This document shows, one piece after another, positions 2,621 to 28,306 of a stretch of 37,030 nucleotides of DNA (its first letter is position 1; the number at the start of each line of letters is the position of its first letter). Origin of the DNA: a virus (Duplodnaviria; Heunggongvirae; Uroviricota; Caudoviricetes). The stretch is taken from the IMG/VR virus record IMGVR_UViG_2861069343_000007, positions 1-37,030 of that record, one strand, 5' to 3'. Below the pieces are notes generated by a model. It was not told the DNA's origin, did not search any database, and was given only the letters and a program-made list of their open reading frames with translations. The translations under genes were made by a program, and so were the position numbers.

Positions 2621-2732
2621 AACTGAAGTTGCCCTGAAAATGAAATTTTTTTGCACAACCGCAGAACTTTTCCGCAGGGCATCAGTCTTAATTAGTGCCA
2701 CTGCTTTTCTTTGATGTCCCCATTTTGTGGAG

Positions 2733-2776: not shown

Positions 2777-2855
2777 TTGCCTGAAATTTAAGCTATTTAA
2801 AATCATGATGTTAGAAACACTGTTTTTTAACGATGGCGACAAAATGGCGGCAGCG

Positions 2856-3074
2856 TCAAAGAGAGAGCGCCACCTGTCCTGATTTCATTGGATGCGGCTG
2901 AACCGGATTTGACTCTTTTGGCGTTGCAATCGAACGAACAAAAGTTTCATGGGTAACAAAAGTATGGCTGCAGTTAATGTTCTGGCACTGGTTGTAACGC
3001 TCTTTGGTCAATGAAGATACCTGAAAACTGCTGCGAGTATGGGCGGCACTTCCACACAGTGGGCAAATCATCAT
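2856..3074 (-). CDS. ogr: Ogr/Delta-family zinc-finger late-gene activator (P2 Ogr / 186 B)
   Basis: CPLCGSAAH...CQNINCSHTF zinc-finger pattern typical of Ogr; start likely at the internal MM (3074 or 3071) rather than ORF-track 3107. Confidence 0.85.
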   Translation of the reverse strand: MMICPLCGSAAHTRSSFQVSSLTKERYNQCQNINCSHTFVTHETFVRSIATPKESNPVQPHPMKSGQVALSL

Positions 3075-4265: not shown

Positions 4266-4747
4266 GACAGCAGCCCTCCCACCGTTTTACTGATATCGCT
4301 TAAGGCAGATGTTGCCGTTTCCTGCAGATTATTCAGTTGCGCACTGAGATCACCGAACATATCGGACAGGGATTCATCCACCCGTTTGAGCGACAGGGTG
4401 AACTCAATCCGGCGCGGCATACCGTCGCGGAAAAACTCCGTTTTAGTCTGATTCAGTCCCTCAATCACATACATGCCATAAATCGTGCCGCTGCCTTCAA
4501 TCAGGGGCCATGCTTTCCCCTGTTCTGCCATCTGCTCCAGTGCCAGCAACGACAGCCTGCCACCTGTTATCTCCGGCATAAGAACACCAGAAAGCGTCAG
4601 CATGTCGTTGTCCGGTCCCAGAAACTGCGTGGACGGACGTCGGTTTACCCGGCTGTTTGCCGCATGTCGCCAGCTGCGTTGATACTGCAGCTCCTGATAC
4701 GGCACGGTGCGCAGCATAAACACGTACAATCCCAGCACCATCATCAT
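4262..4747 (-). CDS. U: Tail protein gpU
   Basis: 161 aa; P2 gpU-like; overlapping stop/start with T and D. Confidence 0.85.
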   Translation of the reverse strand: MMMVLGLYVFMLRTVPYQELQYQRSWRHAANSRVNRRPSTQFLGPDNDMLTLSGVLMPEITGGRLSLLALEQMAEQGKAWPLIEGSGTIYGMYVIEGLNQTKTEFFRDGMPRRIEFTLSLKRVDESLSDMFGDLSAQLNNLQETATSALSDISKTVGGLLS

Positions 4748-7700: not shown

Positions 7701-7821
7701 CACGGGAGTTTCTGATTGCGCCAGCCAGCTCTTTCGAACTGGCCTGTGCAGCACGGAATGGGCGGGTGAGTTTGTCAACCGCATTAAGAATGACCTGCAG
7801 GCGCAGGTTATTATCACTCAT
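4744..7821 (-). CDS. T: Tail tape measure protein gpT
   Basis: 1025 aa; coiled-coil N-terminal part, Ala/Gly-rich hydrophobic middle, typical tape measure. Confidence 0.9.
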   Translation of the reverse strand: MSDNNLRLQVILNAVDKLTRPFRAAQASSKELAGAIRNSRDALKQLNQAGNSLEKFRKLQADNKKLGDRLNYARQKAKLLSSELEAMEQPSQRHLVALGRQTLAVQRLEEQQKYLQKQTALVRAELYRAGISAKDDAGATARLARETSRYNQELSKQEARLKRLGEAQRRMNAARASYARSLEVRDRIAGAGATTTAAGLAMGAPVMAAVKSYTSMEDAMKGVAKQVSGLRDDNGNRTARFYEMQGAIKAASEQLPMENGAVDFAALVEGGARMNVANPDDSWEDQKRDLLAFASTAAKAATAFELPADELSESLGKIAQLYKIPTRNIEQLGDALNYLDDNAMSKGADIIDVMQRLGGVADRLDYRKAAALGSTFLTLGAAPEVAASAANAMVRELSIATMQSKSFFEGMNLLKLNPEVIEKQMTKDAMGTIQRVLEKVNALPQDKRLSAMTMLFGKEFGDDAAKLANNLPELQRQLKLTAGNDALGSMQKESDINKDSLSAQWLLVKTGAQNTFSSLGETLRQPLMDILYTVKSVTGALRRWVEANPELTGTLMKVAAVVAAVTVGLGTLAVALAAVLGPLAVIRLGFSVLGIKTLPSVTAAVTRTSNALFWMAGAPLALLRRGLASSGNAAGLLTAPLSSLRRTASLTGNVLKTVAGAPVALLRSGLSGLRAVAVMFMNPLAALRGGLAAAGAVLRVLASGPLAMLRVALYAISGLLGALLSPIGLVVTALAGVALVVWKYWQPITAFLAGVVEGFKAAAGPISAAFEPLKPVFQWIGDKVQALWGWFTDLLTPVKSTSAELQSAAAMGRRFGEALAEGLNMVMHPLDSLKSGVSWLLEKLGIVSKEAAKAKLPERVTRQQPATVNADGKVMMPSGGFPSWGYGFAGMYDSGGYIPRGQFGIVGENGPEIVNGPANVTSRRNTAALAAVVAGMMGVAAAPAELPPLHPLALPAKGGEAMVSRAATVPPVHRIEAPTQIIIQTQPGQSAQDIAREVARQLDERERRLKAKARSNYSDQGGYDA

Positions 7822-10522: not shown

Positions 10523-12837
10523 TATGCAAACTCCTCGATAATACAAATCCCTGCAGCGCCTTTCCCGCCCGTCATACTGGTTCCGCTATAACCGGCATCG
10601 TATGCACCACCTCCGCCTGAACCATATGCCTTACCACTAACACCACCGCCAGCGCCTGCGCGTCCACCGCCGCCCCAGTGCGATGTTCCGCCTTCACCGC
10701 TGACGCTGATATTTCCGGACTGACCGTCGCCTCCATCTCCACCAGTGATGCGGATATCGCCAGTACTCGGCACACCTCCGTTACCGCCGTTTGTGTTTGT
10801 AACACCCACTTTCCCGCCGCCTGCGCCACCAGGAGCAATTAACGATGCGAATACGCTATTCCCGCCCCTGGTGCCGTTCGTCGCACTAACACCACCGGCC
10901 CCACCTGCGCCGATAGTGACTGGATAACTATTCTGTGTCGGGGTCATTATTGAAATTATTGTTCCACCGGCCCCACCGCCAGCACCGAAAAACGTTTCAT
11001 TATTGGATGTAGCCTTGCAGCCGCCCCCTCCGCCACCGCCGCCCGTTATTGTGACCCTGAGCCGTTTTGTTCCTGGCGTCGGGATGTACGTACCTGATGA
11101 CGTGAAAACCCTAGTGCTTATCAGGCGCCCAACGTATCCACTTTCATCGCTCAAGCCAAGGTCAGTAGTAGTAGGTTTATTTTTAGTGTTATACGCTCTG
11201 CGCCATCCAGGTGAATAACTTGTGCTGCCAGACACGTTAAACACATAGATAAACTCCGCATTAGTGAGTGCACCAGAGACACTTGTCGTCGTGGCTGTTG
11301 TTATTCGAATAGTGTAATTGTCGGTATTATTGCTGAATACTTCTATCACAGCACCCGTCAGTGGAATAATGCCACAACCAGTTTCACTGTCTGGTATGGA
11401 TGCACTAGTTGCATACGACCATGCACAACGAGCGAACCATGCTTTCGTATTGAATGCCCCATTATTTTGCAACAAAGTAACTAACTGAGCTGTCGTTATT
11501 GACTCACCGTTATTACCTGTTTTTAACCAACCAGTAGGAGATGCCGGGCAACCAATATACTGAATAACCTCCTGTGTGCTTGTTTTAGCCAGAATATCCC
11601 GTCCAACATTAGTCAGTGTTGTCAAGCTGGCTGTATCATTCCCCGTAAAATACGGTAGTTTGTCTGCCGCAGTGGCAAGGCCTGCCAGTGCGGTCAGTGT
11701 GGCGTCGGCAGGTTGTTTTCCATTGGCAAGGTCATATACAGCCTTCACGGCTTTTGGTGTGGCAGCCTGCGTTTCTGACGTGCTGTTAGTGGCGCTGCTG
11801 AGTTGCACGGTGCCTTTTACCGTCAGTGAAGCTGCAGGCACATCCGTTATCTGGCTCCACGGGTGCGTGTGACTGACAGGTGCCTTACCTGCTGCAAGGT
11901 CATATGCCGCCTTCACTGCCTTTGGTGTGGCAGCCTGCGTTTCTGACGTGCTGTTAGTGGCACTGCTGAGTTGCACGGTGCCTTTTACCGTCAGTGAAGC
12001 TACAGGCACATCCGTTATCTGATTCCACGGGTGTGTGTGACTGACAGGTGCCTTACCTGCTGCAAGGTCATATGCCGCCTTCACTGCCTTTGGAGTGGCG
12101 GCCTGCGTTTCTGATGTGCTGTTAGTGGCGCTGCTGAGTTGCACAGTGCCTTTTACCGTCAGCGAGGCTGCAGGTACACCTGTTATCTGATTCCACGGGT
12201 GTGTGTGACTGGCGGATGCTTTACCTGCTGCAAGATCATATGCAGCCTTCACAGCCTTCGGTGTTGCGGCCAGTATTTCGGATTCACTGTTGGTCGCACT
12301 GCTTAACTGAGTAAAACCTTTTGCGGTCAGCGAGGCGTCCGGGTGACGTCGTGACTGTTCGTGCTCTGATATTTTGTCATCCACATACTTGCGAGTTGCC
12401 AGTACTACAGCAGGGTCGATTTTCAGGGTGATATTGTCCGTACTGCTGGTAATCAGCACCATGCGCACGGTCTGGGTGCGCCCGCTGCCTTCAGCCAGTT
12501 GCGGTTTATAGCTTTCCGGGCAGTTCCCCACGGCAATCAATGCCCCTGACTCATCAAACAGGCCCACTTCACGTATCCACCAACCGCCCTCGTTTTCAGG
12601 GATCACCTGTTCAGCAATAATCTGGCTGCTGTTCTGCGGGTCGATATAGAGCATATTCAGTGCAGCCCGGCGTTTCTCATTTACCAGTGCAGTCTGCTTT
12701 GCGTCCGGCGTCGGCAATGCTCCGCCGCCATCGCCCACCGCCATATGGGTAATTTTTAGCGGCACACCAAGCGCGGCGGCGCTGGCAAGTTTCGCCGCGC
12801 CAATATCCGTCAGCAGGGTATAAAATTTTGTGCTCAT
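10522..12837 (-). CDS. H: Tail fiber protein gpH with four tandem fiber repeats and glycine-rich C-terminal domain
   Basis: 771 aa; P2 H-like N-terminus; four ~57-aa repeats (SLTVKGTVQLSSATNSTSETQAATPKAVKAAYDLAAGKAPVSHTHPW); C-terminal ~200 aa rich in GGxGG. Confidence 0.9.
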   Translation of the reverse strand: MSTKFYTLLTDIGAAKLASAAALGVPLKITHMAVGDGGGALPTPDAKQTALVNEKRRAALNMLYIDPQNSSQIIAEQVIPENEGGWWIREVGLFDESGALIAVGNCPESYKPQLAEGSGRTQTVRMVLITSSTDNITLKIDPAVVLATRKYVDDKISEHEQSRRHPDASLTAKGFTQLSSATNSESEILAATPKAVKAAYDLAAGKASASHTHPWNQITGVPAASLTVKGTVQLSSATNSTSETQAATPKAVKAAYDLAAGKAPVSHTHPWNQITDVPVASLTVKGTVQLSSATNSTSETQAATPKAVKAAYDLAAGKAPVSHTHPWSQITDVPAASLTVKGTVQLSSATNSTSETQAATPKAVKAVYDLANGKQPADATLTALAGLATAADKLPYFTGNDTASLTTLTNVGRDILAKTSTQEVIQYIGCPASPTGWLKTGNNGESITTAQLVTLLQNNGAFNTKAWFARCAWSYATSASIPDSETGCGIIPLTGAVIEVFSNNTDNYTIRITTATTTSVSGALTNAEFIYVFNVSGSTSYSPGWRRAYNTKNKPTTTDLGLSDESGYVGRLISTRVFTSSGTYIPTPGTKRLRVTITGGGGGGGGCKATSNNETFFGAGGGAGGTIISIMTPTQNSYPVTIGAGGAGGVSATNGTRGGNSVFASLIAPGGAGGGKVGVTNTNGGNGGVPSTGDIRITGGDGGDGQSGNISVSGEGGTSHWGGGGRAGAGGGVSGKAYGSGGGGAYDAGYSGTSMTGGKGAAGICIIEEFA
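11700..12350 (-). repeat. About four tandem ~171-bp coding repeats inside the tail fiber gene
   Basis: Near-identical DNA units beginning gcaaggtcatat... recur at ~11726, ~11897, ~12068 and (diverged) ~12232. Confidence 0.8.
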
Positions 12838-13439
12838 GGATTCACTCTCATTGTGTCAATAACATGGACCGCCCCGCCTTCATGCGCGGTGCCGCCGGAA
12901 ATAATTGTTTCGTTGATATACGGATAGATCGTGATTTCTTCGCCAAGATAGCTGGCGGCTCCCACCCAATGCGGGCCGCTGGTCTGCAGGTTGATGGACA
13001 TGCCGCTCATGTGACGGCTACATGGTTTGGCATCGCTTATCAGTCGCTCAAGTTCCAGATAGGTATCTTCAGTGATGCCCTGGTCCTGCACGCCGATATC
13101 CAGACGAAACGTGCCCGGTGCCTCTCCGGTCTGCCACCACTCAATAATGCGGATCAGAAAGCCGAACGGCTCCACCACCCGCCGCACGGCACTGGTGGTC
13201 CCTTTATGCTGATGAATATAAAAAGCATCCTTCACCACCTGGCGCTTGACGCTTTCTGTCCAGCCCTCGTCCCAGCGATCCACAGAGAACGCCCAGGCGA
13301 GATAAGGCAGGAAACTGACCGGACAGGTAGCCGGATTCCACAAGTCACGCAGCGGCACCTGCAAATCAGAAATCCCGCTACAGGTTTGCGCCAGTCGGCG
13401 CTCCAGTGAAGTTGAACCCGGTGGCAGCAGACTATTCAT
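12834..13439 (-). CDS. I: Baseplate assembly protein gpI
   Basis: 201 aa; position between J and H; overlapping stop/start. Confidence 0.8.
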   Translation of the reverse strand: MNSLLPPGSTSLERRLAQTCSGISDLQVPLRDLWNPATCPVSFLPYLAWAFSVDRWDEGWTESVKRQVVKDAFYIHQHKGTTSAVRRVVEPFGFLIRIIEWWQTGEAPGTFRLDIGVQDQGITEDTYLELERLISDAKPCSRHMSGMSINLQTSGPHWVGAASYLGEEITIYPYINETIISGGTAHEGGAVHVIDTMRVNP

Positions 13440-15776: not shown

Positions 15777-16221
15777 GTTTCACCGTCCACATTTCTTCAG
15801 GTTCATCAGGTTCCGCTACAGCTTCAACACTCGACACACTGCCGTCAGTGCTGACCAGCACACGCTCCGTCAGTTGCAGGTTCAGGCTGATATCACAGAC
15901 ATCGTTGCGCAGAATATCCACCTCAAAGGTGAATAGTTTTTCCCGTAACGCCGGGTTATTGATGGCATCGGGCTGGTTATCCCTCAGCCACAGCAAAACC
16001 GGGGCCATCAGCAGATTCTGGTCGCCGCTGAAATCCTCAATCACCGCGTTCAGGGTGTAACGGTACTCCCACGACATGGAGCTGGCCCCCGTGGCAACCA
16101 GCGAACCGTTATCCACAAACAGATGCAGTTTGTCCGGGTTATTGCGGACATAAGGCACCGCTTTATTGAGGGCGTGGCGCAGGGATTGTGGTTTGTTCAC
16201 TGTTTCGCTCCTGACACGCAA
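15769..16221 (-). CDS. R: Tail completion protein gpR
   Basis: 150 aa; position. Confidence 0.8.
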   Translation of the reverse strand: MRVRSETVNKPQSLRHALNKAVPYVRNNPDKLHLFVDNGSLVATGASSMSWEYRYTLNAVIEDFSGDQNLLMAPVLLWLRDNQPDAINNPALREKLFTFEVDILRNDVCDISLNLQLTERVLVSTDGSVSSVEAVAEPDEPEEMWTVKRG

Positions 16222-16453
16222 TAATCATGTCCACTTTGTCTGCACAGACCGCCCAGGCAGTCTCCGTTTCATCCAGCAACGCGTTCAGATCACCATTAGT
16301 GCGCGGCGTTGCCTGATCCAGCCGACACGGCGTCACTCGCGGACAACCACTGACGGTAAGCCGTACCTCCGGTGAGTGCCGGACGTTCCCGCAGCCGGAT
16401 AATGTCAGCAGGCAAAGGAGTATCAGCCCAGCGGCGTAAATCCTCGTTCTCAC
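16163..16453 (-). CDS. lysC: LysC (Rz1-like outer-membrane lipoprotein spanin), embedded out of frame in lysB
   Basis: Signal peptide with lipobox LLTLSGC; overlaps the 3' end of lysB in another frame. Confidence 0.7.
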   Translation of the reverse strand: MRTRIYAAGLILLCLLTLSGCGNVRHSPEVRLTVSGCPRVTPCRLDQATPRTNGDLNALLDETETAWAVCADKVDMIIACQERNSEQTTIPAPRPQ

Positions 16454-16724
16454 GTTTCAGTTCCTCGATCCGGTGTTGTCGTTGTCTCAGCAGCGCGCTG
16501 GTCTGTTCTGCTTCGGCATAGAGCCGCGCCTGCTCCCGGTTATTGGTTTCAGTCAGAATGGACAGGCTGATAAGCTGGCTGTTGCTCTTTGCCAGTGCCT
16601 GGCTTTTGCTCTGCAGCTCGTCTGCCTGCGTGCTGATGGTCTGGCTGGCATCAGCCAGCCGCCACGTCTGCCAGCCCAGCGCCGCCAGTAATAACGCCAG
16701 CACAACCAGCAGCAACCGGTTCAT
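16296..16724 (-). CDS. lysB: LysB (Rz-like inner-membrane spanin)
   Basis: 142 aa; N-terminal TM segment then coiled-coil; position after lysA. Confidence 0.8.
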   Translation of the reverse strand: MNRLLLVVLALLLAALGWQTWRLADASQTISTQADELQSKSQALAKSNSQLISLSILTETNNREQARLYAEAEQTSALLRQRQHRIEELKRENEDLRRWADTPLPADIIRLRERPALTGGTAYRQWLSASDAVSAGSGNAAH

Positions 16725-17098
16725 GCTGATACCTGTTGCGCCATCTGATTACGGGTCATCCAGAAGGCAATAACGGTCAGCAGATAAAAGACCAGGGTAA
16801 TAACCCACCCCGTCCAGGCGAGACTTACGACAATCAGCAATCGCATCACCCAGCTGATAAATACGTTTTCTTTTCGGGTAATTGTCTTCAGCAAAGATGC
16901 CCTCAACTCCTGCCAGAGCGGGCCATTCTTAATTAACGCAGCCAGTGCTACCGGAATTACCGCCCATGTCAGCAAACAGGCTACCCAAACGCCGGACGCT
17001 GACAGTACCGGAAAAATCCCCTGCGGATACACCATTGCTTCGATTAACAGCGCCATCCATAACATCAGAAACAGCCCGCTGATTAATTTCTTTTTCAT
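16721..17098 (-). CDS. lysA: LysA (membrane protein, lysis timing)
   Basis: Start at MKKKLISG (ATG overlaps endolysin stop); several TM segments. Confidence 0.7.
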   Translation of the reverse strand: MKKKLISGLFLMLWMALLIEAMVYPQGIFPVLSASGVWVACLLTWAVIPVALAALIKNGPLWQELRASLLKTITRKENVFISWVMRLLIVVSLAWTGWVITLVFYLLTVIAFWMTRNQMAQQVSA

Positions 17099-17099
17099 T

Positions 17100-17612
17100 T
17101 CAGTTTGCTCCCTGTAAGCACCAGGCCATCTCCCGCGCACGGCGGTTATCCAGCCCCTGATTAAACACACCTTTTACATAAACCCAGCGCGGCAACTGTC
17201 GGCATGCATCCTCCCAGCGCCGCTGATTAAGTAATTTCACCAGTGTGGAACTGCAGGCACTGCCCGTTCCCACGTTGAAGGCAAACGACACCGTAGCGTC
17301 ATATACCTTCTGCGGCGGCTGTTGCTTCACACACCTTTCCAGCGCCCGCTCCACACGTAGCACGTTGGAGATCAGCCCTTCCGCTGCCTGTCGTTCCGTA
17401 ATGGTTTTGCCCGGGATGACGCCCGATGTATTACCAATGCCGTCGGTCCAGACACCCGCACTGCACTGATACGGCTGCAGACGACAGCCTTCGTAATCAG
17501 CAATCAGTTTCAGCCCCTCCACGGAGGTGTGAAGCTGCTGAAAACCCGGCAGCGTGGCAGCAATAGCCAGCACGGTCCCGACAAGGCAGCGTTTAACGAT
17601 TGATGGATTCAT
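17100..17612 (-). CDS. K: SAR endolysin (phage lysozyme, gpK position)
   Basis: 170 aa; N-terminal weakly hydrophobic signal-anchor-release segment then lysozyme-like body. Confidence 0.8.
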   Translation of the reverse strand: MNPSIVKRCLVGTVLAIAATLPGFQQLHTSVEGLKLIADYEGCRLQPYQCSAGVWTDGIGNTSGVIPGKTITERQAAEGLISNVLRVERALERCVKQQPPQKVYDATVSFAFNVGTGSACSSTLVKLLNQRRWEDACRQLPRWVYVKGVFNQGLDNRRAREMAWCLQGAN

Positions 17613-17808
17613 AGTCCTCCCGCGAGATCTGCCCGTCGCGCAGAAGCTGGTAGGCTTTGTGTTTGTAGTACCAGTTGATAGCCAGCATCAGCACACCAAT
17701 CATCAGGCCGCCCAGCGTTGAGGCATCCTTGATGGACAAATCGCCCAGCCAGGCCAGCACAACGGCGATGCAGTACGTGATAAAGGCGCTGATTCGCTCA
17801 AGCGTCAT
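17593..17808 (-). CDS. Y: Holin (pinholin-like, two TM segments)
   Basis: 71 aa; two hydrophobic helices and charged C-terminus; immediately upstream of the endolysin. Confidence 0.75.
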   Translation of the reverse strand: MTLERISAFITYCIAVVLAWLGDLSIKDASTLGGLMIGVLMLAINWYYKHKAYQLLRDGQISREDYESINR

Positions 17809-17811
17809 AAT

Positions 17812-18015
17812 TCAGTCCCATAGCTGGACGGTCTGCACGGTGGTGGTGGTCGGAATGTCCGGCAACTCCACCTGCAGCCCGTGAGGTAAAAAGGGGCCGT
17901 ATTCGGCAAGCCCCGGATTTGCCTTCAGTACCTGCTCCGTGACACCCTGCGTGCGCCCGTAATGACGCCAGCAAAGCGCGTCCACCGTGTCATACTGATG
18001 CGCACGCACTTTCAT
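17812..18015 (-). CDS. X: Tail protein gpX
   Basis: 67 aa; P2 X-like (…YGRTQGVTEQVLKANPGLAE…). Confidence 0.85.
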   Translation of the reverse strand: MKVRAHQYDTVDALCWRHYGRTQGVTEQVLKANPGLAEYGPFLPHGLQVELPDIPTTTTVQTVQLWD

Positions 18016-18362
18016 CAGATAAGCTCCACTGTGCAGTGCGGCGCATCCTGCACCCGGCTGATGGCCCAGCGGGCGTCACGCCACAAATCACCGCTTGCTT
18101 CCGCCAGTTCCTCGCCCCGCTTCACACCGGACGCCGTGGCGTCATAGTCCTGGTAACGTTCGTTGAGCATGGCGCGTGCCCAGCAGTAAACCGCGTTGAA
18201 ATAGTGCTGAATGCGCTCACTTTTGCCGTCCAGCTGTTCCGCCGGAACCTCTGCCAGCGACGCATACCCCAGCATCTGCTGGCGTCTGCGAAACTCATAC
18301 AGCTCTGCGTTGACCTCCGAAATTGCCGACAGCGCAACCTGCTTTAAACGCGGCTGCGTCAC
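18015..18362 (-). pseudogene. L: Head completion protein gpL, N-terminally truncated (C-terminal ~2/3 only)
   Basis: 115 aa aligning with the C-terminal part of P2 gpL (…NAELYEF…DLWRDARWAISRVQ…); GTG start abuts the stop of the N fragment. Confidence 0.65.
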
Positions 18363-18715
18363 AGGTCCAGCTTCGCGTAGGTCAGCACCGTGTCAAAGTT
18401 GGTCTGCTCGCATTTATATTCCACATCGACCATCAGCGTCGGATCGACAGGTTCACGCTCTTTCGCGGTGGTGTCAGTGGTTCCGGCAATGGTGCTGCCA
18501 ACTCCCAGCCCCAGCAGCTGACCGGACTGCTCAGTCACTGGCGTGACGTTAATCAGCGTCAGGAAAGCGGCGGACTGCTGGATCTGGTCTTCCAGCGTCT
18601 GCTGCACAGACGGCTCCACGGTGAACTTGCTGGACAGTTCTTCAACTGCCACACCGTTCAGACGCGCCAGCTGCTGCAGGTAAGCGTTAAAAGCAAAGCG
18701 GGTATTCTTCTTCAT
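18359..18715 (-). pseudogene. N: Major capsid protein gpN, N-terminal fragment (118 aa of an expected ~350 aa)
   Basis: MKKNTRFAFNAYLQQLARLNG…FTVEPSV… matches the P2 gpN N-terminus; stop at the position where gpN normally continues. Confidence 0.65.
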
Positions 18716-18731
18716 CGGGTTTTGTGCTCCA

Positions 18732-19565
18732 TCAGCAATTGGTCAGAGTGTCAGCGGGGGCGTTACCGCCTGTTGCACGCTGGCGGTAGTCCTGGCGACT
18801 GTCTTCATGACTCAGCTTGTCCACCAGTTCGTTAAAGGCGGTTTGCTGTGCCTGCAGGGCAGTCTCCAGCTCAGACAGGCGTTCTTCCTGCTCAGACAGG
18901 GATTTTTCGGTGCGTGCGCTCAGGTTCTGCTGCTCAGTGGCGACCAGCTCCACGGCCTTATGCACATCAGAGAACCGGGCGTCATCGGACTGCTCTTTTT
19001 TGGTAAACAGCGCCGTGACGCGGGCAAACAGGGACGGTTTGTCGTCCTGGATTTCTTCCAGTTCGATCACCGTTTCCTCTGCAGCGGTAAAGAGATTGGC
19101 AGGATTCTGCTTGCGGTTTGCCAGCGGGTTATGGGCTGCACTGGCGCTGAATGTCAGCATTTCCGTACCCAGACTGGCAGGGTCATCAGTGGCAGCCAGG
19201 CCGACCAGATAGGCTTTGCCCGTATCAGCGAACTTCGGGCTGACTTCCATAGAGGTGAATAATTTCTGGCCTTTTTTCACCAGTTCCACCAGGGACTCCG
19301 TTGGCTCAACGTCGGCATACAGCGCCATCTTGCCTGCCAGCGGACCTTCCGTGATTTCTTCAGCAAACAGCGCCGTCACCTTGCCGTAGCGGTTAAAGGT
19401 GCTGTCCGGCAGATAAGACTTGATGTGCTCAAGGTTAATCAGCGCGGTATACACCGCCGGGTTGTAGCTGGCTGCCATCTGTTCCAGCCATTCACGCTGG
19501 ATTTCGCGTCCGTCGGTGGTGGCACCTTCCACCCCGATGCGAAAACGCTTTGCTTTCACTGTCAT
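18732..19565 (-). CDS. O: Capsid scaffolding protein gpO
   Basis: 277 aa; P2 gpO-like (…FRIGVEGATTDGREI…LVGLAATDDPASLGTE…). Confidence 0.85.
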   Translation of the reverse strand: MTVKAKRFRIGVEGATTDGREIQREWLEQMAASYNPAVYTALINLEHIKSYLPDSTFNRYGKVTALFAEEITEGPLAGKMALYADVEPTESLVELVKKGQKLFTSMEVSPKFADTGKAYLVGLAATDDPASLGTEMLTFSASAAHNPLANRKQNPANLFTAAEETVIELEEIQDDKPSLFARVTALFTKKEQSDDARFSDVHKAVELVATEQQNLSARTEKSLSEQEERLSELETALQAQQTAFNELVDKLSHEDSRQDYRQRATGGNAPADTLTNC

Positions 19566-19643
19566 GAGCCGTGCTCCGTTAGAAATAACTTACTGGAGCC
19601 TTATGGTTGCGGTGATGGGGGCAGTGAAACAATGCGCGGTATT

Positions 19644-19661
19644 TGTACCGACAACCACACA
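19644..19661. promoter_or_regulatory. Ogr-type activator site (TGT-N12-ACA) in the divergent O/P late promoter region
   Basis: tgtaccgacaaccacaca; near-identical half-sites to the FI site (TGTACCG…CACACA). Confidence 0.55.
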
Positions 19662-19707
19662 AACCGCAGGCGGGGAAAGCCTTCATTCAAGGCTGTAGGT
19701 TTGTGCC

Positions 19708-21474
19708 ATGAACACCACACTGACACCCGCAGATCTCGATCCCCGTCGGCAGGCCATGCTGCTGTACTTTCAGGGATACCGCGTAGCCCGCATTGCTGAA
19801 ATGCTGGGCGAGAAAGTTGCAACCGTTCACAGCTGGAAAAAACGCGACAAGTGGGGTGACTATGGGCCGCTGGATCAGATGCAGCTCACCACCGCCGCCC
19901 GCTACTGCCAGCTCATTATGAAGGAGCACAAAGAAGGGAAAGATTTCAAAGAAATTGACCTGCTGGCGCGCCAGTCGGAGCGCCACGCGCGGATCGGCAA
20001 GTTTAACAATGGCGGCAACGAAGCCGACTTAAACCCTAACGTCGCCAACCGCAACAAAGGGCCGCGCCGTCAGCCGGAAAAGAATGTTTTCACCGATGAA
20101 CAGATTGAGAAGCTGGAAGAAATCTTCCATTCCTCCATGTTCAACTACCAGCGCCACTGGTGGGAAGCAGGAAAAACCAACCGCATCCGTAATCTGCTGA
20201 AGTCACGCCAGATCGGCGCGACCTTTTACTTTGCCCGTGAAGCCCTGATTGACGCCCTGCTTACCGGACGTAACCAGATTTTCCTTTCTGCCAGTAAGGC
20301 ACAGGCTCACGTCTTTAAGCAGTACATCATCGACTTCGCCAAAGAAGTCGAGGTGGAGCTGAAAGGCGATCCGATGGTGCTTCCTAACGGGGCCACACTT
20401 TACTTCCTCGGCACCAATGCCCGCACGGCTCAGAGTTACCACGGCAACCTGTATCTGGATGAATATTTCTGGATACCGAAATTCCAGGAGCTGCGCAAAG
20501 TGGCTTCCGGTATGGCTATTCACAAAAAATGGCGACAAACCTATTTTTCTACGCCATCCAGCCTGACACACAGTGCTTATCCGTTCTGGTCCGGTGCGCT
20601 GTTCAACCGTGGGCGCAACAAAGCCGACAAGGTGGACATCGACCTGTCCCACAGCAATCTGGCCCCCGGCCTGCTGTGCGCAGACGGGCAATACCGCCAG
20701 ATAGTCACCGTGGAAGATGCAGTGCGCGGCGGCTGTAACCTGTTCGACCTTGACCAGTTGCGCATGGAGTACAGCCCGGACGAATACCAGAACCTGCTGA
20801 TGTGCGAGTTTGTGGACGATCTCGCGTCCGTGTTCCCGCTCAGCGAGCTGCAGGCGTGCATGGTGGACAGCTGGGAAGTCTGGACCGACTTTCATGCACT
20901 GGCGCTGCGCCCATTTGGCTGGCGCGAAGTGTGGATCGGTTATGACCCGGCAAAAGGTACGCAGAACGGCGACAGTGCCGGATGCGTGGTGCTGGCACCG
21001 CCAGCCGTGCCGGGCGGTAAGTTTCGCATTCTTGAGCGTCACCAGTGGCGCGGGATGGACTTTCGCGCCCAGGCTGACGCCATCAAAAAACTGACCGAAC
21101 AGTACAACGTGACCTATATCGGCATCGACTCAACCGGCGTTGGTCACGGGGTTTACGAGAACGTGAAAGCGTTTTTTCCTGCCGTCCGGGAGTTTGTCTA
21201 CAACCCCAACGTTAAAAACGCCCTGGTACTCAAGGCTTACGACATTATCAGCCACCGCCGTCTTGAGTTTGACGCCGGACACACCGACATTGCGCAGTCA
21301 TTTATGGCAATCCGTCGCGCCACCACCGCCAGCGGCAACCGCCCGACCTATGAAGCCAGCCGCAGCGAAGAAGCCAGCCACGCCGATCTGGCGTGGGCAA
21401 CCATGCACGCACTGTTTAACGAACCGCTGCAGGGCGAGTCCGCCAATACCAGCAATATTGTGGAGATTTTTTGA
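19708..21474 (+). CDS. P: Terminase large (ATPase) subunit gpP
   Basis: 588 aa; P2 gpP-like; divergent from O. Confidence 0.9.
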   Translation: MNTTLTPADLDPRRQAMLLYFQGYRVARIAEMLGEKVATVHSWKKRDKWGDYGPLDQMQLTTAARYCQLIMKEHKEGKDFKEIDLLARQSERHARIGKFNNGGNEADLNPNVANRNKGPRRQPEKNVFTDEQIEKLEEIFHSSMFNYQRHWWEAGKTNRIRNLLKSRQIGATFYFAREALIDALLTGRNQIFLSASKAQAHVFKQYIIDFAKEVEVELKGDPMVLPNGATLYFLGTNARTAQSYHGNLYLDEYFWIPKFQELRKVASGMAIHKKWRQTYFSTPSSLTHSAYPFWSGALFNRGRNKADKVDIDLSHSNLAPGLLCADGQYRQIVTVEDAVRGGCNLFDLDQLRMEYSPDEYQNLLMCEFVDDLASVFPLSELQACMVDSWEVWTDFHALALRPFGWREVWIGYDPAKGTQNGDSAGCVVLAPPAVPGGKFRILERHQWRGMDFRAQADAIKKLTEQYNVTYIGIDSTGVGHGVYENVKAFFPAVREFVYNPNVKNALVLKAYDIISHRRLEFDAGHTDIAQSFMAIRRATTASGNRPTYEASRSEEASHADLAWATMHALFNEPLQGESANTSNIVEIF

Positions 21475-22499
21475 TGGGAAAGAGTAAGAAAAACCGCGCT
21501 GCGGCGACGAATCAGATCCAGCATAAAAACCAAACTTCAGTCGAAGCATTCAGCTTCGGTGATCCCGTTCCTGTTCTGGACCGCCGCGAACTGCTGGACT
21601 ATGTGGAATGCGTACAGACAGATCGTTGGTATGAGCCGCCAGTGAGTTTCGACGGGCTGGCGCGCACCTTTCGCGCCGCCGTGCATCACAGCTCACCGAT
21701 TGCAGTAAAGTGCAACATTCTGACCAGCACCTACATCCCTCACCCGCTGCTCAGCCAGCAGGCTTTTTCACGTTTTGTGCAGGACTATCTGGTATTTGGT
21801 AACGCCTACCTGGAGAAACGCACGAACCGCTTCGGTGAAGTTATCGCCCTTGAGCCTGCTCTGGCAAAATACACCCGACGCGGGTTAGACCTGGATACCT
21901 ACTGGTTTGTGCAATACGGTATGACAACCCAGCCGTATCAGTTCACGAAAGGCAGCATTTTTCACCTGATGGAACCGGATATCAACCAGGAGATCTACGG
22001 CCTGCCCGGTTATCTTTCTGCCATTCCGTCAGCCCTGCTCAACGAGTCCGCCACGCTGTTCCGCCGCAAGTATTACATTAACGGCAGTCATGCAGGCTTC
22101 ATCATGTACATGACCGATGCCGCGCAAAACCAGGAGGATGTGAACAACCTCCGCAACGCAATGAAAAGCGCCAAAGGACCGGGTAACTTCCGCAACCTGT
22201 TTATGTACTCGCCTAACGGCAAAAAGGATGGGCTTCAGATCATTCCTCTGTCAGAAGTCGCGGCGAAGGATGAGTTTCTGAATATCAAGAACGTGAGCCG
22301 GGACGACATGATGGCGGCGCACCGCGTACCGCCGCAAATGATGGGGATTATGCCTAGCAATGTCGGGGGGTTTGGGGATGTGGAGAAGGCTAGTAAGGTA
22401 TTCGTAAGAAACGAATTGATGCCCCTGCAGAAACGATTGCAGGAACTAAATAACTGGTTGGACGAAGAAGTGCTCAATTTTTCAACCTATGAGCTTTAG
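21471..22499 (+). CDS. Q: Portal protein gpQ
   Basis: 342 aa; P2 gpQ-like; start overlaps P stop. Confidence 0.9.
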   Translation: MMGKSKKNRAAATNQIQHKNQTSVEAFSFGDPVPVLDRRELLDYVECVQTDRWYEPPVSFDGLARTFRAAVHHSSPIAVKCNILTSTYIPHPLLSQQAFSRFVQDYLVFGNAYLEKRTNRFGEVIALEPALAKYTRRGLDLDTYWFVQYGMTTQPYQFTKGSIFHLMEPDINQEIYGLPGYLSAIPSALLNESATLFRRKYYINGSHAGFIMYMTDAAQNQEDVNNLRNAMKSAKGPGNFRNLFMYSPNGKKDGLQIIPLSEVAAKDEFLNIKNVSRDDMMAAHRVPPQMMGIMPSNVGGFGDVEKASKVFVRNELMPLQKRLQELNNWLDEEVLNFSTYEL

Positions 22500-22535
22500 T
22501 TTTAAAACGAAGACCATTAGGTCTTCGCTTTATTT
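22500..22535. terminator. Bidirectional terminator between convergent Q and retron RT
   Basis: 8-bp stem cgaagacc / ggtcttcg (loop atta), flanked by ttttaaaa upstream and ctttattt downstream; RT stop codon lies in the loop. Confidence 0.55.
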
Positions 22536-23479
22536 AAAGGGTTCTTTCCATATTTTTTTTCTAATTTGCTAATATAAGCTATTAATCTTCTATGGCTTTT
22601 TGAATCCACACTTAAAATAAATGACAACCATCCCCTAACGTGTTCTATCTCAGAAGATTTACCGCAAAATATATGATGTATCTTTGCTCTAATTTCTTTA
22701 TATTTTTCTCTACCTATCCCAACTTTCTCTTGTGAAATAACTAAACCTGTAACTTTCCTCTGACTACGAGGCCCACTAATACAAGTTTTTTTTGAGTTAA
22801 TAACCAATCCTTCACTTGGGATTATAGAAAATAAAAAATCACGTGCTTTAACAACCTTTTTCATAGACTGTGCAGATAAGGTGAGATCATCGGCATATCT
22901 CGTATATATCAAGCCCCGACTACCTGCATAGCCCTGAATACGATAATCAAGTTTTGAACATATTAGATTAGCTAATTTAGGTGATGATGGAGCACCTTGT
23001 GGTAGCAGATTTTTATAACAACATATTTTTGTCAAAACTGAAGATATTAGTCGATTATAACCAAGAGAATGGAACACTCCAAAAACTTTGTTAGCAGTTA
23101 AACTTGGGAAAAAATCCTCCAAATCAATATTCAGTATAAAGTTTGCCCCAATATGCGGGGTAGCATTATTCAAAATAGATTGGTGCTTTTCAAATCCAAT
23201 AGAAAAAGGAGATGACGACAGTTTATCTAAAATGTTACGTAGAACCCATCCTTGTAAGGCTTTAAGTTCTCGAGAAGGTTGGTAAATGGTTCTCATTCTC
23301 TTCTCTGGGCCTTTCTTTTCTACAGTGTAGATCCTATAGCGAAAATCAGCTGTATAGATTAACAACCGAAGTGTTTCAACAGATATGCGAGTCGCCTTAG
23401 ACATGTCATGCAAATTGTTCATGACAGGTAGGCCGAGATTTCTCAATCTAAAAGTGTTCAAATATTCAGCGGATTTCAT
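22517..23479 (-). CDS. ret: Retron reverse transcriptase (Retron-Eco1 / Ec86 RT)
   Basis: 320 aa; RT motifs including YADD (YTRYADDLTL); start codon 7 nt downstream of the a2 repeat of msr-msd. Confidence 0.93.
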   Translation of the reverse strand: MKSAEYLNTFRLRNLGLPVMNNLHDMSKATRISVETLRLLIYTADFRYRIYTVEKKGPEKRMRTIYQPSRELKALQGWVLRNILDKLSSSPFSIGFEKHQSILNNATPHIGANFILNIDLEDFFPSLTANKVFGVFHSLGYNRLISSVLTKICCYKNLLPQGAPSSPKLANLICSKLDYRIQGYAGSRGLIYTRYADDLTLSAQSMKKVVKARDFLFSIIPSEGLVINSKKTCISGPRSQRKVTGLVISQEKVGIGREKYKEIRAKIHHIFCGKSSEIEHVRGWLSFILSVDSKSHRRLIAYISKLEKKYGKNPLNKAKT

Positions 23480-23485
23480 GAAAGT

Positions 23486-23654
23486 TGCGCACCCTTACGT
23501 CAGAAAAAACGGGTTTCCTGGTTGGCTCGGAGAGCATCAGGCGATGCTCTCCGTTCCAACAAGGAAAACAGACAGTAACTCAGATTCAATGCAGGATGCC
23601 GAAACAACATCCAGAGGTTGACCTTAATGATAAACCTCTCGCTAAGGGTGCGCA
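23486..23654 (-). ncRNA. msr-msd: Retron msr-msd non-coding RNA (Ec86 msDNA template)
   Basis: Plus strand 23499..23585 reads gtcagaaaaaacgggtttcctggttggctcggagagcatcaggcgatgctctccgttccaacaaggaaaacagacagtaactcaga, recognised as Ec86 msd; flanking inverted repeats a1/a2 TGCGCACCCTTA at 23643..23654 and 23486..23497. Confidence 0.9.
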
Positions 23655-24565
23655 TACGGAATCTTATCATAGTTAAATGTTGATTTTCTACGGTTTTCAA
23701 AATTCATAATCTCAAGCCGCAATCGGTCAAGTGTCTTTCTATCAAAGACGCTCCTAACATAGCTAGCCCCCAAAGCAGTGACCTGATAACCATCAGTCAT
23801 TTGAAGTATTTTTCGTTCATTTATTAGACGAGAAACAACGGATCTAACAATAATTTTAGATAAAACATCATCTTGCTTTATCGCTTTAAAAGCTAGTTCA
23901 CACAGTGTGCGGTAGTTGACACTATCCAGTAAATAGATACAAGGCAATAGAAACCGCTCTGCGTATAATATATTTCCAATATCTTTTGATACTTTATTTT
24001 CTTTCCTAACCTGCTTAATAGATGCCATTAATTTTTTATATAATCGTAATTTTCTGGCAACATCAATAGATGAATCACACATTTCTTTTAGTTCATTTGA
24101 ACTACAACGCAAAACAGATTTTGAATTAAACTTACGCAACAGGCGAACAGGACCATAGTTAATAAAGCTACGTTTTGATTTAAATTTTGCATCTTGAATG
24201 CAAATCAACTTTCTCCTTAAGTTTTCATTATTAGAGAACGCACCAAGCTCTGTGAAAGACCCCGGACTTTCAGGAAATAAAATTATTACATCGACAGCTT
24301 CAGCCAGAATATTTTCTAAACTTAAAAGGCTATGCTGCCCTTGACCAGCCAAAAGATCATCAAATAGATCTTCTGGATAAAATATATCAACATCACTGAA
24401 CTTTGCTAAAAATTGTGATAATTGATGACGCCAAGATTGATGATTAGCAACGTCACCACCACATAGAAAAATGGTTATTTTAATATTAGCTCCTCGATAG
24501 AAGCCTTTCTTTGTGAGATGTCCTATAAGCTGTTGTTGCTGCTCATCGGTAAATTTTTTATTCAT
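23642..24565 (-). CDS. Retron-Eco1 accessory effector (nucleoside deoxyribosyltransferase-like domain protein)
   Basis: Immediately upstream of msr; start assigned to MNKKFTDEQ (ATG 24565..24563, GGAG 4 nt upstream) though in-frame ATGs exist upstream (24595, 24754); stop overlaps a1. Confidence 0.75.
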   Translation of the reverse strand: MNKKFTDEQQQQLIGHLTKKGFYRGANIKITIFLCGGDVANHQSWRHQLSQFLAKFSDVDIFYPEDLFDDLLAGQGQHSLLSLENILAEAVDVIILFPESPGSFTELGAFSNNENLRRKLICIQDAKFKSKRSFINYGPVRLLRKFNSKSVLRCSSNELKEMCDSSIDVARKLRLYKKLMASIKQVRKENKVSKDIGNILYAERFLLPCIYLLDSVNYRTLCELAFKAIKQDDVLSKIIVRSVVSRLINERKILQMTDGYQVTALGASYVRSVFDRKTLDRLRLEIMNFENRRKSTFNYDKIPYAHP

Positions 24566-24637
24566 AATCTCCCCGCTTTTTTCTACTTTATACATCAAGT
24601 TATGAATAGATCCAATCTCCATACCCCATGGCGCGCG

Positions 24638-24656
24638 CTCGTATCCCCGCCACGCC
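24638..24656. other. Candidate cos site (cohesive end)
   Basis: Minus strand reads GGCGTGGCGGGGATACGAG, resembling the P2 cohesive end GGCGAGGCGGGGAAAGCAC as recalled; inside a short GC-rich patch between two AT-rich islands. Confidence 0.4.
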
Positions 24657-24697
24657 TGCCCGCTTTGTGTAGTGGTTTTCATGCACCTGCATGACAT

Positions 24698-24874: not shown

Positions 24875-25876
24875 ATGGGTGGAGAGACTTCGGCTATACA
24901 ACGAGTCGCGGGTAAGATTTCTGATGATATTTTCTCAGTGTTCAAATGGGATCGTGCCGCTAGAGCGGACATGAATTGGGATTGTTGCCAAGAGGCTCAT
25001 TCCAAGAAAACACATCCAAGCGATGTTGTATTTTTCTACATAGATCCATATGAGGAGGAAATGGTCTATCTCAACACAGACCTCAAAAGCTATGCAGAAG
25101 GTACTATTGGGAAAAAAATAGTCGAGGGAGCTTTAACATCGCTTGCTTTAGCTACCGAATGTGCAAATGTCAGTGAAGAATGGCGATTGAAATATGTTCA
25201 TGATGATTCTTTAGGTTATAACGTAAGAGGGTTATTATTCTTATATAACCATGATAATTTATATGATAAAGACTTCTATGAGAATATTACAAAAAAATTA
25301 GATCACTCATCTATAAATTGCCCTCCAAACATCAAACTACATTTGCTTGACCCTTATAAAATATCAGATTTGATAAACATATCTTCTGACATAACTAAGT
25401 TAATTGGTTCAGGCAAACTTCCTCAACCTGATAAGTTCACATATTATTATCCAGATCTTTCCCTAACAAGAATAAAGCACCCTATTAATCAGACAACACC
25501 TGCAACAATTGAATTATTAACATCACCATACATTATAATAAAGCATGAGGCTTTCAGTTGGCTCAGGGATAAAAACCCTGAGGGATATGTTGTTTATTAC
25601 AATCAACCGGGGGATTCAGTAGACGAATTCGTTTACTTCTTTGATATGTTATCAACTTATCAGATATTAACCGAAGGTAAACCAATCGTATTACGCCATT
25701 GTCACATTCACCCAAATGAAAATGCCATTCATCATTTTGAAAGAGCGAAAAAGAAATACAGCACAGACTGGCTCTTAGGCGAGGATGAAAGACTTTTTCT
25801 TAAAATTGACTTCGACAAGACAGACAAAATTGTTGTTGAATATAATCTTGAACAAATCGGCATGGAGCAACGATAA
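24875..25876 (+). CDS. Hypothetical protein, first gene of three-gene cargo operon
   Basis: 333 aa; AGGAG upstream; AT-rich codon usage unlike the phage backbone; no family recognised by eye; possible PD-(D/E)xK-like pattern VVFFYID…NTDLK (speculative). Confidence 0.7.
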   Translation: MGGETSAIQRVAGKISDDIFSVFKWDRAARADMNWDCCQEAHSKKTHPSDVVFFYIDPYEEEMVYLNTDLKSYAEGTIGKKIVEGALTSLALATECANVSEEWRLKYVHDDSLGYNVRGLLFLYNHDNLYDKDFYENITKKLDHSSINCPPNIKLHLLDPYKISDLINISSDITKLIGSGKLPQPDKFTYYYPDLSLTRIKHPINQTTPATIELLTSPYIIIKHEAFSWLRDKNPEGYVVYYNQPGDSVDEFVYFFDMLSTYQILTEGKPIVLRHCHIHPNENAIHHFERAKKKYSTDWLLGEDERLFLKIDFDKTDKIVVEYNLEQIGMEQR

Positions 25877-26955
25877 TGGCTAAAAAACTATATTTCGCAA
25901 CTGATAAAAATATTTATGATGCATTACATCATAAAAGGATAACCGCTGCAAAGTTGCATGAATTATTGTTGAATCGAGGTGTGTTTTTATCACCAGAACT
26001 CGACAAGGAAATACTAATCGAGGAAATATCCAAACTTCCTCACGGATTTAATGAATTAGAACACATAAAAAAACTGGTCAAAACATATGACCCAAGGGAA
26101 AGCACTACTAGTGTGAGCTTCCAAACCTCAACAAATCAGGCCGAATTAAAAAGTGCTGCTGAAGCACTAAAAAAAACATGCTCCCCTAGTAAAGGTCAAA
26201 GCCTGAATATTGTAGCTAAAAAAGATGGCTCGCTTACAGTAGAATACAAATATGAAGAAATAGACCTGTCTAAAACTGCATTACGTCAGATCGACAAGCG
26301 GAATGTTATAATAGAACTTCGCCCTGGAGCTGACAAAGTTGAAGTACGTATGCCTCAAAACCCCGAGGCAAAAAAAGTTATTGAGAGCTTGCAAAACGAG
26401 CTATCTAAAATCAAGTCCGAACCTATCGAGCGCTTCGAAATATCATTACTAGCAATAACTGATCCTACATTGCGAAGTCAGTTTTTTCAGGAATTAATGA
26501 ATGGTCTACGCGGTTATGAGACTGATGACGTAACAAAAGTCGAATTAAATCGCAGTACTGATGCTAGTGAGGATGAAGACAAGGAAGAAACTATTGATAC
26601 CGGATTTGTTAAGAAAGCTGTCCTTAATGGTGAAGGGGTAAATAGTTCAGCTATATTTTCTCAACTACATGAGAAAGGTTATTATATCGGGCGTATTGCA
26701 TGGTCTTCAAAGCCGACAAGTGGAATTGGAGACAGAATCAACGTCGAAGCATTTTTCAAAGACTCAGAAAAATGCTGTGACTTTGCCTATCAAATTAAAG
26801 GTATAAACAATCAAAAAGAAGACGGTTTCAATGTAACCATTCGCGCGGCAACAGCACAAGAGAAAAAACATATTAGTGAATTAATTGAGTCCGCCGCTGA
26901 AAATGCCTATAATATAATAATAGGATCAGAGGTGAACGAAGATGAAAAAGGTTAA
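25876..26955 (+). CDS. Hypothetical protein, second gene of three-gene cargo operon
   Basis: 359 aa; start overlaps upstream stop (TAATG); charged and Lys/Glu-rich; no recognisable motif. Confidence 0.7.
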   Translation: MAKKLYFATDKNIYDALHHKRITAAKLHELLLNRGVFLSPELDKEILIEEISKLPHGFNELEHIKKLVKTYDPRESTTSVSFQTSTNQAELKSAAEALKKTCSPSKGQSLNIVAKKDGSLTVEYKYEEIDLSKTALRQIDKRNVIIELRPGADKVEVRMPQNPEAKKVIESLQNELSKIKSEPIERFEISLLAITDPTLRSQFFQELMNGLRGYETDDVTKVELNRSTDASEDEDKEETIDTGFVKKAVLNGEGVNSSAIFSQLHEKGYYIGRIAWSSKPTSGIGDRINVEAFFKDSEKCCDFAYQIKGINNQKEDGFNVTIRAATAQEKKHISELIESAAENAYNIIIGSEVNEDEKG

Positions 26956-27625
26956 ATGGCTTAAGTTAAACATACGGCTTGAGTTTGAAACAGCCGTTAG
27001 ACGTCTTTCTCTTGATTCTTTTACAGAGGATAAAGGGAAAGGGTTCATTTTTGATAAAATACGCCATGATTTTGCAAATGGTCGCTTTGTCGAGCGTATT
27101 GTTTATCATGATAAAATATTAAGCTTTGACGGAAGCGAAACTACCGTTGAAAGAATCGAATATCGCACCACAAATTTTAGCGTGGCTTTAGACTCTCTTC
27201 CTGTAATGCAGATTACTAACCCACCCAGAACTTTAAAGCCTTTTTCGCAGGCTTTGGTAAAAAATCTTGGCTTAGGTGTTAGTTTGGAAGAAATTGACAT
27301 AAACCCTATAGACTGGCTTAATGAAATATCTTCAAGTGTAAATATCAATTTAACACAACTTGATATTTCAAGGGTTAGAGTTTCTGATTACGCCACAGCT
27401 AAAATGCAAATAATTGGCAGCAATGATCTTAGGAAGTATTATAAAGAAGAATTAGAGGGTAAAAAAATAAGAATTGACAGGCTTGTTTGCTCTGTTAATT
27501 CATTAGAATATTCCGGTAAGCTCAAGATCACCAATAGCGGCCTTGCTTATATTGATGTTAGAAATGAGAATGAGTTTACGAAAATCGTTTTTGATACGTT
27601 AAAAAAAGTCACCCTTCAATCATAG
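26942..27625 (+). CDS. Hypothetical protein, third gene of three-gene cargo operon
   Basis: 227 aa; 14-nt overlap with upstream gene; no recognisable motif. Confidence 0.7.
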   Translation: MKKVKWLKLNIRLEFETAVRRLSLDSFTEDKGKGFIFDKIRHDFANGRFVERIVYHDKILSFDGSETTVERIEYRTTNFSVALDSLPVMQITNPPRTLKPFSQALVKNLGLGVSLEEIDINPIDWLNEISSSVNINLTQLDISRVRVSDYATAKMQIIGSNDLRKYYKEELEGKKIRIDRLVCSVNSLEYSGKLKITNSGLAYIDVRNENEFTKIVFDTLKKVTLQS

Positions 27626-27720: not shown

Positions 27721-27954
27721 TTAATGCAGCCAGCTATCGTCCTCCCACACCTTCTGCATAATTTTCATCACTTGTTTTCTTTCTTCGTCCAGTTGCAGTC
27801 CGGTCAGTTCCACACCGTTAGAGCTACCTTTGCGGATACGAATTACCGTTTTGGGATACAGGGGGCGCAGATTGCGGTAAAGCTCGGATTCAAGGGCGTC
27901 CAGGGTAGACTGGCTAATTTTCTGCTCTTTATCGATCATTATTTCAATGCGCAT
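27721..27954 (-). CDS. DinI-family protein (Tum C-terminal-domain-like)
   Basis: 77 aa from MRIEIMIDK; resembles DinI (MRIE…, conserved acidic C-terminus …WEDDSWLH); GAGGTGA Shine-Dalgarno. Confidence 0.75.
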   Translation of the reverse strand: MRIEIMIDKEQKISQSTLDALESELYRNLRPLYPKTVIRIRKGSSNGVELTGLQLDEERKQVMKIMQKVWEDDSWLH

Positions 27955-27964
27955 AAAAGTCACC

Positions 27965-28153
27965 TCAGCTGATGACATCCATTGAGCGGTTGTATTCGTG
28001 GCTTCTGATTTTTGCCATGAGTTCATCAGTCAATTCAGAAACCCACTGCAGAGCCAGCCCCTTCTCTTCATCACTACACTCACTAGCCGCTACAAGCTTA
28101 AGAAAAAAATCAATGCGCTGGAGCTTCAAAGACTCCAAAAAATAGTCCTGCAT
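27965..28153 (-). CDS. Small hypothetical protein co-transcribed with the dinI-like gene (possible Tum N-terminal part)
   Basis: 62 aa from MQDYFLESL; strong AGGAGG Shine-Dalgarno; sits 44 bp downstream of a LexA box. Confidence 0.55.
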   Translation of the reverse strand: MQDYFLESLKLQRIDFFLKLVAASECSDEEKGLALQWVSELTDELMAKIRSHEYNRSMDVIS

Positions 28154-28196
28154 TTTTCCTCCTATGATACCACAAGCAATACTGTACACATAACCA

Positions 28197-28212
28197 CTGT
28201 TTATATTTACAG
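28197..28212. promoter_or_regulatory. LexA (SOS) box
   Basis: CTGTTTATATTTACAG fits CTGT-N8-ACAG; upstream of the tum/dinI-like operon. Confidence 0.7.
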
Positions 28213-28306
28213 TATATAATAATCTTACTGATGTAAAACGTTTTTTTACGTTCATCAGCCTGATATGCCTGGTATTATTAAGAGCACGAATTGTTAACCC
28301 GCGTAA

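Follow-up and report, generated by a model that had tools for sequence, protein, structure and literature searches.

The window, by which we mean the whole 37,030-nucleotide stretch of DNA analysed here, holds a prophage that lacks exactly 1,572 bp of its head-gene block. The missing segment takes in most of the capsid gene N, all of the small-terminase gene M and the start of the head-completion gene L, bearing out the first-pass annotation, which had put the loss at about 1.6 kb. Very probably, the segment was lost by spontaneous, microhomology-mediated deletion from a prophage that is otherwise functional, an event private to one strain. The lesion is an ordinary prophage-inactivating deletion; at the same time it may not be the outcome of purely random slippage, with its breakpoint coinciding with one that recurs in other prophages.

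The prophage, its site and its cargo

As judged from its sequence, the element is a 186/P2-like (Wadgaonvirus-like) prophage of E. coli, inserted beside rybB/ybjL. The genes grxA, ybjM and ybjL of the left flank are 100% identical to E. coli chromosomes, and the prophage spans ogr (2856-3074) to the integrase gene (35900-37030) in the standard P2/186-like gene order. On the minus strand this order is ogr-D-U-T-E-FII-FI-G-H-I-J-W-V-S-R-lysCBA-K-Y-X-[L'-N']-O, where the primes denote remnants; on the plus strand P and Q come after O, followed by defence cargo, the replication gene A, Dam, cII, cI, a KAP NTPase and int. The attachment site of the prophage appears to be the rybB 3' region, and the rybB/ybjL-rcdA interval is occupied by decayed relatives in ZH177, BL21 and ETEC 504239 too. 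The features that set the scene for the deletion are:

2700-2778, plus strand: RybB sRNA, full-length (Rfam scan, 105 bits), adjoining the ogr end of the prophage
4744-7821: ORF of the tape measure T, 1,025 aa, equal in length to the annotated tape measure of NC_049342
17812-18015, minus strand: tail gene X, intact (Pfam Phage_tail_X 1-59/60), the first late-operon gene downstream of the deletion
18732-19565, minus strand: O, capsid scaffold/protease, 277 aa, full length (Pfam Phage_GPO 2-268/268, E 4e-113) and of the same length in intact relatives
19708-21474, plus strand: P, large terminase, 588 aa, intact (Pfam Terminase_5/6N/6C), now without its small-subunit partner M
21471-22499, plus strand: Q, portal, full length at 341-342 aa as in intact relatives (Pfam Phage_portal)

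All P2-like viruses share seven hallmark proteins, and N, M and L belong to these (PMC13100340). Of the other hallmark genes of a P2-like (Peduoviridae) prophage, Q, P and O are present (Pfam) and so, judged by ORF length, is T; N is reduced to 118 of 352 aa, M is gone and L retains 115 of 154 aa; because these three are incomplete, the element is a defective P2-like member and not a functional phage. The lengths found in intact relatives are otherwise kept by the holin, the endolysin, LysA/B, R, S, V, W, J, I, FI, FII, E, T (1,025 aa), U, D, ogr and X, and the prophage also has replication protein A (804 aa), Dam, cII, cI and int.

The first-pass annotation had described the defence cargo as intact, and all three loci recovered with PADLOC are indeed full length. 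Two of these lie around a cos-like site:

22517-24697, minus strand: retron of type II-A (Ec86/Eco1-like), consisting of the RT (22517-23479) and the NDT effector (23642-24697)
24638-24656, minus strand: cos-like site, GGCGTGGCGGGGATACGAG then CGCGCGCC, with 23/28 identity to the 186 cohesive end and flank
24875-27625, plus strand: 3HP system (Hp1, Hp2, Hp3), full length, with end-to-end PADLOC matches (E 1e-239 to 2e-157)
34567-35898, plus strand: KAP-family P-loop NTPase (PADLOC candidate PDC-S20, E 7e-171; Pfam KAP_NTPase, E 5e-53)

Both the RT (RT_II-A, E 8e-128) and the effector (NDT_II-A, E 5e-94) of the retron are recognized, and the locus is 97.2% identical at the DNA level to the Ec86 locus of E. 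coli B/BL21 over 3.4 kb. The Rfam scan returned RybB only, with no match to a retron msr/msd RNA at the gathering threshold. The putative cos, with a 19-nt cohesive end of the form GGCG(A/T)GGCGGGG... towards the portal side, lies beyond the retron RT and effector; the retron is therefore inserted between the portal gene and cos, whereas in P2 and 186 only ~190 bp separate the two. Since the longest effector ORF (370 aa) runs across cos, the true start of the NDT effector is probably internal to the called ORF. The 3HP system sits on the other side of cos from the retron, and the KAP NTPase, between cI and int, would make a third position for cargo in addition to the two around cos.

Farther along lies a candidate regulatory module:

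27721-28255, minus strand: a pair of small ORFs, one member of which is a DinI-like protein
28197-28214, minus strand: LexA-box of perfect consensus, TACTGTAAATATAAACAG, at the 5' end of this ORF pair

The tum operon of 186 is SOS-controlled, and by the likeness of the LexA-box/DinI-like module to it the prophage may still be SOS-inducible.

The deletion, its junction and the remnants

The deletion was delimited against NC_049342, the closest annotated relative with an intact head block, by pairwise BLAST and a base-by-base check of both flanks. Positions 16001-18362 of the window match positions 70-2431 of this intact relative (numbered as in our locus L001) and 18360-21476 match 4001-7117: the two sides of the junction are 96.4-96.7% identical to the reference, their offsets lie 1,572 bp apart and they overlap by three bases. 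The RefSeq record NC_049342.1 ('Escherichia phage 500465-1'; L029), although entered as a 'complete phage genome', is actually a prophage prediction, in which the annotation of portal and terminase is split and which takes in IS100 fragments as well as host genes (smpB, recN, grpE, ffh) over ~10 kb; while not a bona fide phage genome, it serves as a reference for N-M-L. Intact Wadgaonvirus/186-like prophages more generally are collinear with the window and 96-98% identical to it on both junction sides, but have a full N, M and L of 352, 216 and 154 aa. These lengths of the window's own lineage differ from those of P2 (357, 247 and 169 aa), with which the approximate sizes given for P2 in the first-pass annotation agree.

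The lost segment, 11554-13125 in NC_049342 coordinates, comprises the third base of N codon 119 and everything after it as far as the N stop, the whole of M (12260-12910), the spacers and codons 1-40 of L. What is left in the window is the following:

18359-18715, minus strand: N', major capsid gene cut down to residues 1-118 of 352, with a TGA made by the junction as its stop
18360-18362: deletion junction, a 3-bp microhomology reading CAC on the plus strand and GTG on the gene strand
18015-18362, minus strand: L', remnant of the head-completion gene, 115 aa, codons 40/41-154 of 154

The reference has a GTG at each of the two sites and the window has one; beyond it the flanks bear no relation to each other, and no repeats longer than 3 bp were found flanking the junction. 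The junction thus has the marks of a microhomology-mediated (illegitimate) deletion: a short direct repeat of which one copy is left, with neither a mobile element nor a long repeat. Its likeliest origin would be one spontaneous illegitimate-recombination event between two GTG trinucleotides, one at codon 118/119 of N and the other at codon 40 of L, which would have removed the 1,572 bp and fused codon 118 of N to out-of-frame L with a TGA directly after. Although 1,572 is divisible by three, the frames of N and L differ, and because of this N' runs into out-of-frame L and stops at once. The TGA of N' (18359-18361) overlaps the GTG of L' (18360-18362), so that the 118-aa N-terminal and 115-aa C-terminal fragments abut near 18360 much as they had been described. 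The GTG start of L' is fortuitous, merely the retained copy of the microhomology.

The protein remnants are readily recognized. N' matches profile positions 1-110/327 of Pfam Phage_cap_P2 (E 6e-39) and positions 1-117/345 of the PHROG major head protein, and has 100% identity to the first 118 residues of the full-length NC_049342 N; of the capsid protein, no more than the N-terminal third would remain in it. It also matches positions 1-119 of phrog_8979, a family of length 180 listed as of 'unknown function', with an E-value better than that of the major-head PHROG, which hints that truncated N-terminal capsid ORFs recur in phage records often enough to form a family of their own. L' matches positions 26-139/139 of Pfam Phage_GPL (E 7e-38) and, by tblastn, residues 34-154 of the reference L at 96.7%; L has thus lost its first 39-40 codons, and M is wholly gone. 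Full-length capsid or small-terminase homologs elsewhere in the window would have overturned the proposed loss, but tblastn with N, M and L of the window lineage, P2 and 186 found in the window only N 1-118 and the C-terminal part of L, and no homolog of M (E>0.5).

In P2, gpN forms the capsid shell, gpM and gpP package the DNA and gpL completes the head (PMC7552001). By analogy with P2 genetics, the prophage alone would be unable to assemble capsids or to cut and package cos DNA, while it may still be able to replicate, make tails and lyse the cell. The predicted inability to build heads or package DNA holds in that the window has no second copy of N or M, making autonomous virions very unlikely. 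The lost functions (shell, small terminase and head completion) are the same as in the classical N, M and L amber mutants of P2; those are laboratory point mutants, whereas the window carries a natural three-gene deletion.

Distribution and competing explanations

The 8.5-kb region around the deletion is covered in two pieces by 955 complete E. coli genomes, and every complete genome among the matches listed exceeds the window by the same 1,572 bp. Among these listed complete genomes the nearest intact relative is, at only 98% identity, too distant for dating the deletion from sequence. The junction of the window itself occurs in 0 of 5,426 complete E. coli genomes. The only other dataset in which we found it is the run SRR5884782, whose independent Logan k-mer assembly has a 55-kb contig identical to the window at 16,177/16,177 positions, junction included. 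The exact 115-aa L' product is present on three contigs, two of which are intact prophages where the gene caller chose an internal GTG. Among species-representative genomes an exact-pattern scan gave no match to a 40-base junction pattern, and an 18-base pattern gave chance matches only, in unrelated taxa; exact-pattern scans of IMG/VR likewise gave chance matches only. Because it was found nowhere else, the deletion would be private to one strain.

The alternative that fares best, though we hold it unlikely, is that of a helper-dependent, satellite-like element, which would obtain capsids along with N, M and L from a co-resident or superinfecting P2-like phage. The cos-like site is retained, all the other morphogenetic and replication genes are intact, and E. 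coli genomes frequently carry two or more P2-like prophages (up to 5-6 matching places in one genome); with cos, the portal, the scaffold and the large terminase remaining, rescue by a helper is conceivable. The occurrence of the deletion in one strain only nonetheless speaks against successful spread by such means.

The first-pass annotation had taken the element to be consistent with a domesticated, defence-carrying cryptic prophage; on such a view the host keeps the cargo, and the loss of head genes is part of a selected immobilisation. We regard this as quite improbable. The full-length retron, 3HP and KAP-NTPase loci agree with it, and so does the attB shared with decayed relatives in E. 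coli B/BL21, ZH177 and ETEC strains. Against it, there is a single lesion, with no further decay in the functions checked. Since lysis, replication, integrase and the putative SOS module are intact, the element is still potentially lethal to its host; the host-killing functions have not been lost (the lysis, replication, cI/cII and LexA-box/DinI-like ORFs are full length). Nor was the same defective state found across diverged host lineages: the junction, seen in none of the 5,426 genomes and in one identical dataset, gives no sign of vertical persistence or selection.

The relatives at the same site help place the spontaneous-deletion reading in context. The cryptic retron-Ec86 (Retron-Eco1) prophage of E. 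coli B/BL21 shares the site (ybjL/rybB-rcdA) and the Q-retron RT-effector arrangement with the window prophage, and its head genes are likewise missing. It has, however, suffered at least three larger deletions, as opposed to the one 1,572-bp lesion of the window: one fuses the scaffold to an endolysin fragment, another takes out the tail sheath-to-D module and a third joins gene A to cII. Neither 3HP nor the KAP locus, both present in the window, occurs in it. The BL21 sister that we compared is from BL21-Gold(DE3) (L034; NC_012947 2881331-2924713). The ZH177 sister (L002) has a fusion of the tape measure to a portal fragment, and an IS1. Together these sister prophages form a graded decay series at one locus. 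Defective P2-like prophages with pseudogenised core functions beside intact defence systems have been described in a survey where the core gene lost varied without a consistent pattern, the primase being the most often affected (PMC13586616). The window differs from those prophages in having its lesion in the head/packaging block of an element that is complete in other respects. A crippled prophage with intact defence is nothing new among P2-like elements, and E. coli B has long been known to carry one.

It is very improbable, in our estimate, that we are looking at an incipient tailocin whose induction releases contractile tails only, like the R-type bacteriocins derived from P2-like tails. 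Such tailocins have tail and lysis genes without functional head genes, and in the window too the tail module is complete, the lysis cassette and ogr are kept and the heads are disabled; yet refined tailocin loci consist of tail and lysis genes only and have shed the portal, terminase, scaffold, replication and integration genes, whereas the window has all of these (portal, large terminase, scaffold, gpA and integrase) and occurs in a single strain. Least credible of all is an assembly or sequencing artefact, with N-M-L present in the strain and dropped from the assembly, which would fit the absence of the junction from complete genomes but is contradicted by the lack of any collapse-prone repeat at the junction (3 bp only) and by the same junction in the 55-kb contig of the independent SRR5884782 assembly.

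A recurrent breakpoint at codon 119 of N

At least six different events in diverged P2-like prophages, that of the window among them, fall within the same few bases, ..GACCTGTG^GGCG.., where ^ marks the break. The site corresponds to window positions 18357-18365 (N codon 118-119) and was encountered in loci L003, L004, L005, L006, L008-L012, L028 and L039. The 12 bases around the break, GACCTGTGGGCG, are identical in P2, 186 and the window lineage. In the public collection the exact 118-aa N' product occurs on 143 contigs, as against 1, 1, 0, 20 and 3 contigs for same-allele N prefixes of 113-117 aa and 0, 2, 0, 9 and 0 contigs for those of 119-123 aa. The variants at the site are:

CCTGTG^ACGCAGCC: N' joined to L, in the window
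CCTGTG^ACGCCGTG: N' joined to lysC (L006)
CCTGTG^ACGTTGCT: N' joined to U (L003, L005; 4 contigs)
CCTGTG^GACGGGGTGGGCTCT: N' joined to a filler and then to the 3' end of D, in six complete ETEC genomes
CCTGTG^AGCGAAG: a TGG to TGA point change in an otherwise intact N (L004)
CCTGTG^ at a contig end: contigs that end exactly after CCTGTG and differ in their cargo genes, at least five (L008-L012)
CCTGTG^ joined, inverted, to early-region sequence corresponding to window position 31774 (L039)

The product of the ETEC junction (N'-filler-D) is found on 108 contigs. Its 15-nt filler matches lysA at 13/15 positions on the correct strand, where by our estimate about 0.01 such matches would be expected by chance within the N-D interval; from the sequence alone, the succession of N', lysA-like filler and D looks like serial template switching. 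The inverted junction of L039 came from a scan made after the idea of a hotspot had formed: metagenome contigs were searched for the 20 pre-break bases followed by a non-G, and L039 was the one match. All the junctions have microhomology of 2-4 bp only. The left flanks of the breakpoint variants are 2-4% apart, as far as they are from intact prophages, and this argues for independent events, with the proviso that recombination after the event could have shuffled flanks from a single ancestral event.

Several features of the sampling bear on how this recurrence is to be read. Three of the junction types were found by searching with the 118-aa product and are hence conditioned on the codon-119 site, and the contig-end cases could be technical. 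The head deletions of BL21 and ZH177 do not use the codon-119 site.

With these provisos we tentatively suggest, as a possibility that we would not call probable, that codon 119 of N is fragile in a site-specific way, through a nick or a barrier to replication, and repeatedly seeds rearrangements of the head module by microhomology-mediated template switching. A site-specific nick or replication stall might leave a fixed 3' end, ..CCTGTG, that re-primes at microhomologies, a step in which we have low confidence. If so, the site would be a preferred inactivation route of P2-like prophages. A bolder variant is that N(1-118) is itself selected, for instance as a capsid decoy with dominant-negative action, expressed upon trans-activation of the late promoter by a related phage.

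Several more specific accounts of the site were considered and set aside. Pseudo-cos cleavage came to mind because GGCGA resembles the start of the P2 cohesive end, but in-register identity to the P2, 186 and window cos is 32-40/120, where shuffles give 30 +/- 4.7, and the N site is not singled out by local alignments. A single clonal lineage with successive deletions is unsupported: between junction types the left flanks are 56-136 substitutions per 3.1 kb apart, as far as they are from intact prophages, a comparison that later recombination could have blurred, and the variant with N' joined to lysC is the nearest to an intact reference, at 12 differences. No second copy of the breakpoint motif was found elsewhere in the phage (e.g. 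one that is ori-like) within 2-3 mismatches. In place of a strong hairpin at the break there is only a weak interrupted stem, with non-significant z-scores of -1.8 to +0.5. A common TGG to TGA allele, which might lie behind the contig forks, is present in 0/5,426 complete genomes.

In itself the deletion is of little weight, being one more case of a prophage crippled with its defence cargo intact. As a counterpart to the E. coli B retron-Ec86 prophage, on the other hand, the window prophage is clean and only minimally decayed, and with its one lesion it could help to weigh the cost or benefit to the host of the first step in prophage decay. Of the whole locus, only the possible fragile site in the capsid gene might come as a surprise to specialists: were it real, prophage decay would not be purely random, and the nick or stall responsible could be mapped.
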